Positions 16,645 to 21,486 of a DNA stretch of 28,613 bases are shown here, piece by piece. Each line of letters begins with the position of its first letter. The first letter of the stretch is position 1. A model generated the notes under the pieces. The model worked only from the letters and a program-made list of their open reading frames with translations, ran no database searches and was not told the DNA's origin. The DNA is from Dehalococcoidia bacterium (lineage in GTDB: Bacteria; Chloroflexota; Dehalococcoidia; Lucifugimonadales; UBA2962). The position numbers were made by a program, and so were the translations under genes. The stretch covers positions 1 to 28,613 of the forward strand of contig CAUZIR010000001.1 in NCBI GenBank assembly GCA_963579815.1. The letters run 5' to 3'.

Positions 16645-17724
16645 CTAGGCCCAGTCGAAAGAAGAAACCCAGGCCAACCTCGTCAAACGGCTGCCACTGA
16701 GCGGCCCCGAAGTCGCTTCGCCAGAGAACGGGTCCCACGCCGACCCCGTTTGCGAGTCAAAAAAGTTGTCGGCACCTGTGCCGAAGGTAAGTGGCCCGTC
16801 CCGGCCGGGGGGCGTGGCGAGGTAAACATTCACCTCGCGTGTCTCGGAGTCCACGAACACCACCACGGGCCTGTCCCCAACCCGGTCGTTCACCACTCCC
16901 GCCTCGGCCACATCCGGGTATCGGTATGCGCTGGCGTCCGTGCCAGCCGTGACACCGATGACGAAGAAGTCGGTGCCGCCCGTCGACTCGAAAACGCCGA
17001 TACGCGCGCTCCCCTCCACTGCAAGCACCTGTGTCTCGGGATGCCGGGCCACCCAGCTACTGAAAGGTTCAATGCCGACCGGTATCAGGTCGAGCCGTGT
17101 ACCAGCAAGCTCGCCCTGAATGGCCGCCCCCCACGGCTGCGACCAGACGGAGCCCGACTCGTGGTCCCACCAGGTCATTGCTCGCATGAACAGCGCGCCC
17201 TGGTTGCCGAGCGTCAGCACCCTGTCTCCCACCCGCCGGTCATGCACGAGACCGGTATAGCAAATCGGTCACCAGGTGACGAGTATCGGTATGCCCCCAA
17301 CCTCGTCATTGACCATCTCCCTCCATTGCAAGTAGCGAATGGGGTAGGCGCGGGAGTCGCCATTAATGGAAACCCCCATCACTAGGTCGTCTGGCTCAAG
17401 GCCCGACTCGGCGGGTCGCACGAACTGCGGGTCGTAGATCGGCTCAATCGAGTCCCGCCGCAGCAGCTGGCGGAAATCGTCCAGCTGGCGCGGGTCACCC
17501 CCAGACAAGATGCTCTCAAGCAGAGTGGCAGCCCCGGTCACTGGCGGGCCTGTGGACTCGGCGACAGAGTCGTCATGCGGCAAGCCGTCCCCGTGTCCGG
17601 AGGCGCCCGGCATCCCCGACTCGCCCGGCATACTGGGCTCACCGCAGGCCGCAGCCGCCATGAGCACAACCAGGCCGACCGCCAGGGCGACCATCTTGCC
17701 GCCCCCTTTGGGGTTATGAGCCAA
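16645..17724 (-). CDS. DUF3179-family lipoprotein, probable selenoprotein (UxxC), with TAG at a probable Trp codon near the C-terminus
   Basis: ORFs 17269-17724 and 16645-17247 are in the same frame, joined by TGA at 17271-17269: ILVTW-TGA-PICYTG. Family-like motifs DSIEPIYDPQF, SRAYP, WREMVND, WDHESGSVWSQ; lipobox AAAA-C. Start may be ATG 17694. Confidence 0.8.
17236..17271 (-). promoter_or_regulatory. SECIS-like hairpin following the in-frame UGA of the DUF3179 gene
   Basis: mRNA sense: UGA CCGAUUUGC UAUA CCGGUC UCGUGCAU GACCGG; 6-bp upper stem starting 14 nt after UGA, G-containing apical loop. Confidence 0.65.
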
Positions 17725-19417: not shown

Positions 19418-20617
19418 GTGGAAGACAACCCCATCGAAAACCAACCCCCAGGCGAAACCACCGACCCCAGCACCGGCCCCAGTGCAGCCGCCAGTGCGGC
19501 CCCGAGCGTCGGGCGGGCCGTGCTGAGGAACGTCGCTGGCGACCGTCGAAGGCAGATTGTACTGGGGCGTACCAACCGGTCCAGGCAACGCCTCAAGCTC
19601 ATGGCCATAGGGCTCGCCCTGCTCGTCATCGCCGGAATCCTGACGGCGGGCTTCGTAATCTCATTCGTGCTGCCTCCCCGCCAGTCCCTCGTTAGGGTCA
19701 ACGACGTCACCTACTCCCGTGGGGACCTCGTCGATGCGCTCCGGGCCCAGCAGGCGCAGTCGCGACTGTTCGGCCTCGACTTCCAGGCCAGCCAGGAAAT
19801 CTTCGGGGCCCTGCACCTTTTCGTCGAAGACGAGATACTTTCGCAAATAGCGGCCAAGTACGGCATTTCGGTAGAAGAAGAAGAGATCGACCGGCTTATC
19901 GAAAGCGATCTTCTTGCCACCGACCTGCGTCTCACCCCCGATGCCCTCAGCGTCAACTTCGACGAACTCTACGGCCAGCGGCTGAACGAACTGCAGGTGT
20001 CCAGGGCCGACCACCGCAAGCTAACCGGCAGGTCCCTACTTCGTTCCAAGTTCCGCGAATTTGTGGGCGAGCAGGTTCCTCGAATAGCAGAGCAAGTCCA
20101 CTACCACCGCATAGTCATGACCGTCGGCACCGAAGTAGACATCATGCTGGTCAAGCTCAAGGACGGACTGGCCGAGGCGACCACCCCCGAACAGCGCCAG
20201 GCCGTCTGGCGAAATATCACCCGGGAGTTCTCGCTGGACGAGCCGGAAGTAGTCCGACTGGGTGGGGACATCGGCTGGATGCCGCTCGAGTCTACCGACG
20301 TCTACGCCGAGACAATTCTCGCCCTGGAAATTGGCAAGGTTAGCGCACCAATTACGGACATTGAGAGCCCCAAAGTCGTCCTATTCTTCATGATCTCAGA
20401 GGTCGATGCGGCTCGGGAATTGCAAGCGGAAGACCTCGAAGACATGAAGTCCCGTGCCTTGCAAAACTGGATCAACAAAGAGCGGGACAACCACATTATT
20501 AATGCGGCCTTCGACTCCGACATTTACACGTGGATGCTCGAGCAACTCGCCCAGACGGCAATTGCCACGCCCACCGTGCAGGCCAACCCCTTCGCCAATA
20601 CGGGAGGAGGGTTCTAA
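19418..20617 (+). CDS. Membrane-anchored SurA/PrsA-like foldase (SurA N-terminal plus degenerate PpiC domain)
   Basis: Single TM segment (LMAIGLALLVIAGILTAGFVISFVL), LVRVNDVTYSRGDL, GGDIGWMP rotamase-like motif; SD CAGGAG before GTG. Confidence 0.72.
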   Translation: MEDNPIENQPPGETTDPSTGPSAAASAAPSVGRAVLRNVAGDRRRQIVLGRTNRSRQRLKLMAIGLALLVIAGILTAGFVISFVLPPRQSLVRVNDVTYSRGDLVDALRAQQAQSRLFGLDFQASQEIFGALHLFVEDEILSQIAAKYGISVEEEEIDRLIESDLLATDLRLTPDALSVNFDELYGQRLNELQVSRADHRKLTGRSLLRSKFREFVGEQVPRIAEQVHYHRIVMTVGTEVDIMLVKLKDGLAEATTPEQRQAVWRNITREFSLDEPEVVRLGGDIGWMPLESTDVYAETILALEIGKVSAPITDIESPKVVLFFMISEVDAARELQAEDLEDMKSRALQNWINKERDNHIINAAFDSDIYTWMLEQLAQTAIATPTVQANPFANTGGGF

Positions 20618-21100
20618 ATGGTCAGGCCTCGCAATCTAGGCCACGTCGTACTCAGGGTGCGAAACGTGGACCGGGCACAGACCTTCTACACCAGCCTCCT
20701 GGACCTCGACGTCATGGCCCGCTACGGGGACGACGCGGTGTTCCTTAGCTCCGGTAACGACTCCTCCCACGAACTCGCTCTCATGTCGGTGGGTGAGGAC
20801 GCTCCCGGCCCCGAGTCCAACCGGGTTGGCATGTACCACTTCGCCTGGCGTTTCGCAGAACTCGCTGATCTTCGCGCCCTGCGCACCCAACTGGCAGAGG
20901 CCGGGGTAAAGGCGGGTGTGGGCAACCACGGCATCTCTATTGGCATCTACTTTTTCGACCCCGACGGCAACGAAATAGAGTGCTACTTCGAGCTACCTAA
21001 AAAGCACTGGCCCTCCGGCGACATCTTCGCCGGACAGTACTTCCCTGACGGCCTCGACACCGACCTGGCCAAAGTAATACAGGCGGCAGTGGCAAGTTGA
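20618..21100 (+). CDS. VOC (glyoxalase/extradiol dioxygenase) family protein
   Basis: LGHVVLRV...FYTSLL, HELAL, GMYHFAW, NHG..IGIYFFDPDGNEIE. Confidence 0.88.
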   Translation: MVRPRNLGHVVLRVRNVDRAQTFYTSLLDLDVMARYGDDAVFLSSGNDSSHELALMSVGEDAPGPESNRVGMYHFAWRFAELADLRALRTQLAEAGVKAGVGNHGISIGIYFFDPDGNEIECYFELPKKHWPSGDIFAGQYFPDGLDTDLAKVIQAAVAS

Positions 21101-21486
21101 AAAAGCCTGAGGTCTACAGCAAAAAGGCCCAGTTCTACTGCAAAAAGGGCTGAACAACCTGTAAGAGAGCGCGTGAGACGCTCTCAGGCCTGGGTGTGGA
21201 GCTGACCGAGCGCGACATGTTCAAGCACCCTCTGACAGAGGCTGAACTTGGGGCGCTAATTGGCGGCCGACCCGTGCGGGACTTCTTCTCGTTTAAGAGC
21301 CCATCGTTCCGCAAACTCGGGCTGGACCGCGAAGGGCTCACCGACTCCCAGATGCTATCGATGATGTCTGGCGAACCGCGCCTCATACGGCGGCCCCTGG
21401 TCGCCATACTCTCCGGTACGGGCGTCACGGGGAACCACGTCATCGTGGGTAACGCCGCCGCCGCCTTCGAGCAGGCCTTCGGTTAA
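21097..21486 (+). CDS. ArsC/Spx-like thioredoxin-fold protein, probable selenoprotein (UxxC), 129 aa
   Basis: Frame of ORF 21196-21486 extends upstream through TGA 21151-21153 to TTG 21097: MKKPEVYSKKAQFYCKKG-TGA-TTCKRARETLSGLGVELTERD...PLT..EL...KSPSFRKLGL...EPRLIRRPLV. Confidence 0.82.
21151..21188 (+). promoter_or_regulatory. SECIS-like hairpin following the in-frame UGA of the ArsC/Spx-like gene
   Basis: UGA ACAA CCU GUAA GAGAGCG CGUGAGA CGCUCUC AGG: perfect 7-bp upper stem, 7-nt G-containing loop, bulge and short lower stem. Confidence 0.7.

Follow-up and report, generated by a model that had tools for sequence, protein, structure and literature searches.

One forward-strand frame of the window, by which we mean the whole stretch of 28,613 nucleotides of Dehalococcoidia DNA that was analysed, runs from a TTG codon through a single in-frame TGA to a TAA stop at positions 21484-21486 (Table 1). 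When the TGA is translated as selenocysteine (Sec, U), the product has 129 residues, with a U19-x-x-C22 motif inside the segment FYCKKG-U-TTCKRARETL near its N-terminus and the segment PRLIRRP near its C-terminus. A sequence-only reading of this DNA had remarked that the called 96-aa ORF lacked an N-terminus and that the same frame stayed open upstream through one TGA; translation bears this out, and the N-terminal segment is found in the read-through product exactly as it had been written.

Table 1 Features of the locus (positions in the window).
Feature	Positions	Strand	Basis or remark
Predicted full selenoprotein gene, ArsC/Spx-fold product	21097..21486	+	129 codons plus TAA; translation, Pfam, structural model, orthologues with the same TGA
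TTG start codon	21097..21099	+	Sole in-frame ATG, GTG or TTG upstream of the TGA
Diverged 21-nt tandem duplication, 2.3 copies	21100..21147	+	Tandem Repeats Finder: period 21, 81% matches
Cys15 (TGC), four residues before U19	21139..21141	+	Lineage-specific column
In-frame TGA, read as U19, first residue of the U-x-x-C redox motif	21151..21153	+	TGA in 79/80 species loci; aligns to Spx Cys10
Cys22 (TGT), predicted partner of Sec in U-x-x-C	21160..21162	+	Invariant column (alignment A3); aligns to Spx Cys13
Putative SECIS hairpin, 7-bp stem and 7-nt apical loop	21165..21185	+	Fold; pairing conserved with compensatory changes
Called 96-aa ORF, GTG start	21196..21486	+	ORF list; truncation without strand 1 and active site
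R98-R99-P100 ('RRP'), inside PRLIRRP	21388..21396	+	Invariant columns (A3); aligns to LLRRP of Spx

In the alignment, the TTG codon falls on the ATG start of G004, the closest relative, whose protein is 81% identical to the window's product, and on the TTG start that G005 has. The upstream VOC/glyoxalase-family gene ends in a TGA (21098-21100) that overlaps this TTG in the sequence GTTGA, an arrangement that suggests translational coupling. The relatives mostly possess an ATG located 8-12 codons before the TGA, often after a purine-rich, Shine-Dalgarno-like stretch. On the opposite strand, an ORF of 102 residues (window 21135-21443, -) lies entirely within the gene and turns up in 42 loci; most likely it just shadows the conserved sense frame, given the high GC content of the DNA.

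The beginning of the protein is peculiar to this genome. The tandem duplication adds seven N-terminal codons, so that KKPEVYS stands ahead of KKAQFYC, and the alignment shows this 21-nt insertion after the start to be specific to the source genome and missing from the two closest relatives, G004 and G005. A weak TTG start combined with a recent seven-codon duplication makes expression less certain here than in the relatives. Another insertion, in a loop near residue 104, is common to this species and G004 in the alignment. The extra cysteine four residues before the Sec position, to which the sequence-only reading had drawn attention, is indeed present, but it does not hold as a feature of the family: among the relatives of the same order its column carries Cys only in the source genome (G000), G002, G004 and G005 and mostly Trp in the others, and in a set of 80 species it is again Cys in the same two species (L036 and L107) and mostly Trp elsewhere. 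We rejected Cys15 as a third redox residue of the family since most relatives carry Trp at this position.

The source genome (1.79 Mb in 290 contigs, 74% complete, 62% G+C) encodes SelA (432 bits), SelB (351 bits) and SelD (371 bits), all above curated cut-offs, and aragorn detected a tRNA-Sec with anticodon tca on its contig C122. The search for Sec machinery, which had been proposed as a check on the selenoprotein assignment, thus returned selA, selB, selD and the tRNA. The selD gene itself (contig C33:6754-7674, locus L012) carries one in-frame TGA, and its product is probably also a selenoprotein, as in many Sec-using bacteria. Elsewhere in the window (16645-17724), the sequence-only reading reported a DUF3179 gene whose UxxC motif includes an in-frame TGA and has a hairpin after it. 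TGA serves as an ordinary stop in this genome, terminating 287 of 1000 long ORFs as well as the overlapping gene directly upstream; a genome-wide reassignment of TGA to Trp or Gly was therefore rejected.

We found a homologue in 26 of 40 relatives of the same order, and each intact one contains exactly one TGA, always in the same column. The orthologue of G002 (L034, about 1415-1755) is split over two frames, with two TGAs in its N-terminal piece, and represents either a pseudogene or an assembly error. A broader scan with one genome per species yielded 80 loci, nearly all of them titled Dehalococcoidia, SAR202 cluster or Chloroflexota, in which the Sec column holds TGA with a single exception, the TGC of L060. 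Together, the conservation of the TGA column and the covariation of the helix described below lie far beyond chance. Searching 1.8 billion representative proteins with a profile, we retrieved full-length CxxC homologues (P0038, P0040, P0041, P0043, P0047 and others), which, with the TGC of L060, supply the Cys/Sec pairs that an alignment of homologues had been expected to reveal. One further homologue, P0039, has Trp at the Sec column (YYFWNR-W-SSCRK) and is extended by 30 residues at its N-terminus; instead of a genuine Trp variant, it looks like the product of gene calling with TGA translated as Trp. A Cys paralogue sought in the source genome (74% complete) with the same query was not found. 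Another Sec-type member, L109, sits on a 12-kb contig (CAYWRV010000053.1, titled uncultured Smithella sp.) that was assigned to a Desulfobacterota bin, which could be due to mis-binning or to transfer between phyla.

The stretch preceding the called start behaves as coding sequence. In a set of 84 distinct sequences, variability is greatest at the third codon position, ahead of the TGA as well as from the TGA to the called start. Comparison with four congeners gave a dN/dS of 0.20-0.27 over codons 8-33 and of 0.16-0.29 over the gene as a whole; judging from these alignments, the part of the frame that precedes the called start is evidently under purifying selection.

The stem of the hairpin that follows the TGA consists of GAGAGCG (21165-21171) and CGCUCUC (21179-21185), forming seven perfect pairs that enclose the loop CGUGAGA (21172-21178). 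A spacer of 11 nt separates it from the TGA, with the stem beginning at the 12th base, which confirms the perfect 7-bp hairpin previously placed '12 nt' after the TGA. As a single sequence, the local region folds unremarkably (z = -1.66; 13 of 200 shuffles fold equally well), so that the case rests on covariation in the comparison with relatives. Within the genus, the 7-bp helix is 100% paired (70 of 70 cells), with one compensatory double change from G-C to A-U and an alternation of G-U and A-U at another pair. Ten other genera of the order use the same 3' arm with a 5' arm located four bases further downstream, which gives a 7-bp helix with a 5-nt loop. This second helix is 97% paired, three of its pairs have changed on both sides, and none of 500 shuffles covaries as strongly; if the partner is shifted by 1-3 columns, pairing falls to 36-64%. 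In several of the compensatory changes, an altered Arg/Lys codon is accompanied by a synonymous change in a Leu codon, a combination for which coding constraint alone would be an insufficient cause.

In both hairpin architectures the loop starts with [C/A]-G-U, the G being invariant and the next U nearly so. The minimal SECIS element of Escherichia coli fdhF is an upper stem-loop located 11 nt from the UGA, whose loop G and U are essential, and the layout of the window's hairpin fits this model. Scanning positions 21050-21300 against Rfam at a permissive E-value returned no SECIS family but only a chance flavivirus stem-loop (E 2.3); such a blank is expected for short bacterial SECIS elements and carries no weight against the Sec reading.

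The read-through product passes the gathering threshold of the Pfam ArsC family (PF03960; 48.8 bits against a cut-off of 24), in agreement with the family membership that the sequence-only reading had given it. An AlphaFold2 model built on 18 orthologues (mean pLDDT 86) matched Spx, YffB and ArsC structures in Foldseek with probability 1.00 and TM scores of 0.6-0.86. The Spx of Bacillus subtilis was the best solved relative in a search with the orthologue profile (85 bits, E 2e-23) and also ranked first by Foldseek E-value. U19 and C22 align to Cys10 and Cys13 of Spx, and the RRP triplet is invariant in alignment A3, as anticipated from the Spx-like placement of the motif and its conserved C-terminal Arg-Arg-Pro. 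In the model, U19-T-T-C22 sits in the loop that connects strand 1 to helix 1, at the site of the Spx CxxC, and the product of the 96-residue ORF would possess neither strand 1 nor the redox motif.

Comparison with the more specific NCBIfam models gave scores below the cut-offs of every named family considered. TIGR01617 (Spx/MgsR) was the top match, yet it reached 57 against a cut-off of 75, and two other Spx/MgsR models were missed by a larger measure (NF002459, 45.3 against 123; NF009885, 25.5 against 152). The same applied to the arsenate reductase models (TIGR00014, 30.5 against 106.05; NF007456, 29.2 against 242) and to NF041106, the 'ArsC family (seleno)protein' (ArsC_rel_Se_1; 27.1 against 85).

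We annotated the gene neighbourhood over 81 loci, leaving some smaller groups aside. The annotated groups comprised a SurA-like protein, homoserine dehydrogenase, a short-chain dehydrogenase, a CoA-transferase and a VOC protein; from ORFs read by eye, what we take to be CoaD and RsmD also recur. Commonest of all are the first four of these groups; the SurA-like protein, which is membrane-anchored, precedes the gene in the same orientation at 42 of the 81 loci. In the window it corresponds to a 399-residue membrane-anchored protein (19418-20617, +) with sub-threshold matches to the SurA N-terminal domain, and the VOC/glyoxalase-family gene (20618-21100) stands between it and the selenoprotein gene in both the source genome and G004. 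A functional partner was sought across the 81 loci and none was found, so that the neighbours give no functional clue.

Taken as a whole, the locus is very probably a single gene (21097-21486) for a Sec-decoded, cytoplasmic thioredoxin-fold protein of the ArsC/Spx/YffB family. Translation would begin at the TTG at 21097, probably by coupling with the upstream VOC gene, whose stop overlaps this TTG, and the ribosome would pass the UGA at 21151 without terminating. SelB with Sec-tRNA(Sec) would bind the hairpin at 21165-21185, 11 nt downstream, and selenocysteine would be inserted. In the resulting protein, U19 and C22 most likely alternate between a selenol/thiol form and a selenenylsulfide. 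It is the comparison with relatives that shows the Sec decoding; the chemistry we infer.

Selenocysteine is generally kept at catalytic redox sites. On that basis, we consider it moderately likely that the protein is a catalytic reductase acting on a disulfide or another redox substrate, that is, a selenol/thiol oxidoreductase; an arsenate reductase or an RNA-polymerase-binding regulator appears less likely than such a catalytic role.

The regulatory possibility, according to which an Spx-like protein binds the C-terminal domain of the RNA polymerase alpha subunit (alpha-CTD) and uses the U-x-x-C selenenylsulfide as a transcriptional redox switch, is unlikely in our view. It draws on the primacy of B. 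subtilis Spx in both the profile and the Foldseek comparisons, on the alignment of U19 and C22 to the Spx redox pair, and on TIGR01617 being the best NCBIfam match. However, the protein falls below the cut-offs of TIGR01617 and NF002459, and it ends near Spx residue 115, so that it is devoid of the C-terminal tail. In Spx, Gly52 is important for alpha-CTD binding; here the loop at this site is two residues shorter, and the Gly52 column contains Pro, Ala or Ser. Moreover, Sec is usually reserved for catalysis and not for sensing. The stronger proposal that this protein is the Spx analogue of the Dehalococcoidia, binding RNA polymerase with the U19-C22 selenenylsulfide as its redox switch, seems quite improbable. 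If true, it would be the first known selenocysteine-dependent transcription factor and would make the control of stress genes in the SAR202 lineage dependent on the supply of selenium.

That the protein is an arsenate reductase of the glutaredoxin-coupled ArsC type which depends on selenium is very improbable. Membership of Pfam ArsC and the literature label 'Arsenate reductase 2' would favour it, and the invariant Arg99 aligns by eye with Arg94 of the R773 ArsC, which we take to be the catalytic residue of that enzyme. Nevertheless, the scores against TIGR00014 and NF007456 are far from their cut-offs, and profile matches to solved ArsC structures are far weaker than the match to Spx (46 against 85 bits). 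No arsenic-resistance gene occurs among the annotated neighbour groups over the 81 loci. The motif is UxxC, whereas the Global Ocean Sampling (GOS) selenoproteome table gives UxxS for the ArsC-proper type (PMC2398784).

Finally, it is scarcely credible that the TGA is a true stop, with a real 96-aa ORF starting at GTG 21196 below a decaying upstream likeness (or, in a variant, with Trp/Cys suppression of the stop): all gene callers report the short ORF, the only start in the source genome is a TTG and the N-terminus there is duplicated, P0039 shows W at the Sec column and the G002 relative is frameshifted, but the 96-aa product would be deprived of strand 1 and the entire active site of its fold, the TGA column, upstream starts, purifying selection and compensated hairpin are conserved across 80 species, and the source genome has a complete Sec machinery.

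The sequence comparisons thus indicate that the gene of the window is a real selenoprotein gene of a marine-type (SAR202-like) Dehalococcoidia bacterium. Neither this kind of protein nor its decoding mechanism is new, the selenoprotein family having been catalogued since 2008, and the main value of the present analysis consequently lies in mending an ORF that gene callers have cut short. The truncation is widespread: for the Sec-type genes of the family, the public protein collection holds only versions of 78-104 aa without the active site, and the profile search of 1.8 billion representative proteins retrieved many fragments of about 70-105 residues that start after the Sec site. With a dedicated Sec-aware model, each genome of an abundant ocean lineage would regain one selenoprotein. 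Within the Dehalococcoidia/SAR202 branch, Sec is used nearly without exception (79/80 species sampled), and its near-universal presence in an Spx-like protein suggests that the lineage depends on selenium for some redox task. A literature search combining SAR202 and selenocysteine returned no paper on the topic, as judged by title or abstract.

Among characterized proteins, B. subtilis Spx (PDB 1z3e, 3gfk, 6gho, 7f75) has the same fold (TM 0.69-0.79), its redox pair in the same columns and the LLRRP segment in common with the window's protein. The differences are the replacement of Cys10 by Sec, the missing C-terminal tail and the shorter, non-conserved Gly52 loop; in addition, the window's protein comes from the Chloroflexota and Spx from the Firmicutes, and the NCBIfam cut-offs for Spx are missed. 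YffB (PA3664, PDB 1rw1) and the glutaredoxin-coupled ArsC of R773 (PDB 1i9d) also have this fold and the Arg-Pro motif, with a TM score of up to 0.86 by target for 1rw1 and profile scores of 50 bits for YffB and 46 bits for ArsC. Both presumably rely on a single active-site Cys (of the CxxS or CxxM type), without a UxxC/CxxC pair. NF041106 serves genome annotation as a model of ArsC-family selenoproteins; it scores the window's protein below its cut-off, and its failure to capture this branch fits the truncated ORFs under which the branch is consistently annotated.

In 2006, a list for Deltaproteobacteria already contained ArsC-like selenoproteins (PMC1794560). The GOS selenoproteome of Zhang and Gladyshev included an 'Arsenate reductase 2 (UxxC, cd03032)' in 2008 (PMC2398784), and a 2022 review has an entry for an 'Arsenate reductase-like protein, COG1393, UxxC' (PMC9312934). 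The sequence-only reading was therefore correct that Sec-containing ArsC-like proteins had been annotated earlier. Like the protein of the window, the GOS 'Arsenate reductase 2' has an ArsC-family domain and Sec as the first residue of UxxC. By an unscored comparison by eye, at least three GOS reads (JCVI_READ_1318105, 1121231 and 1095390070075) carry the conserved blocks of the family, namely YYTW.K-U-STC, ERD[IF]F.DP[LF]S, RSPx[VF]KK and EPRLI[RK]RPL (PMC2398784). The GOS group is nonetheless mixed, its other visible reads being of a different type (G-U-T-[ST]-C ... LRAPT). Whereas the GOS paper gave neither taxonomy nor function for the group (PMC2398784), the member found in the window belongs to a high-GC Dehalococcoidia genome, and it differs from the GOS group in its duplicated N-terminus and in the register of its hairpin.
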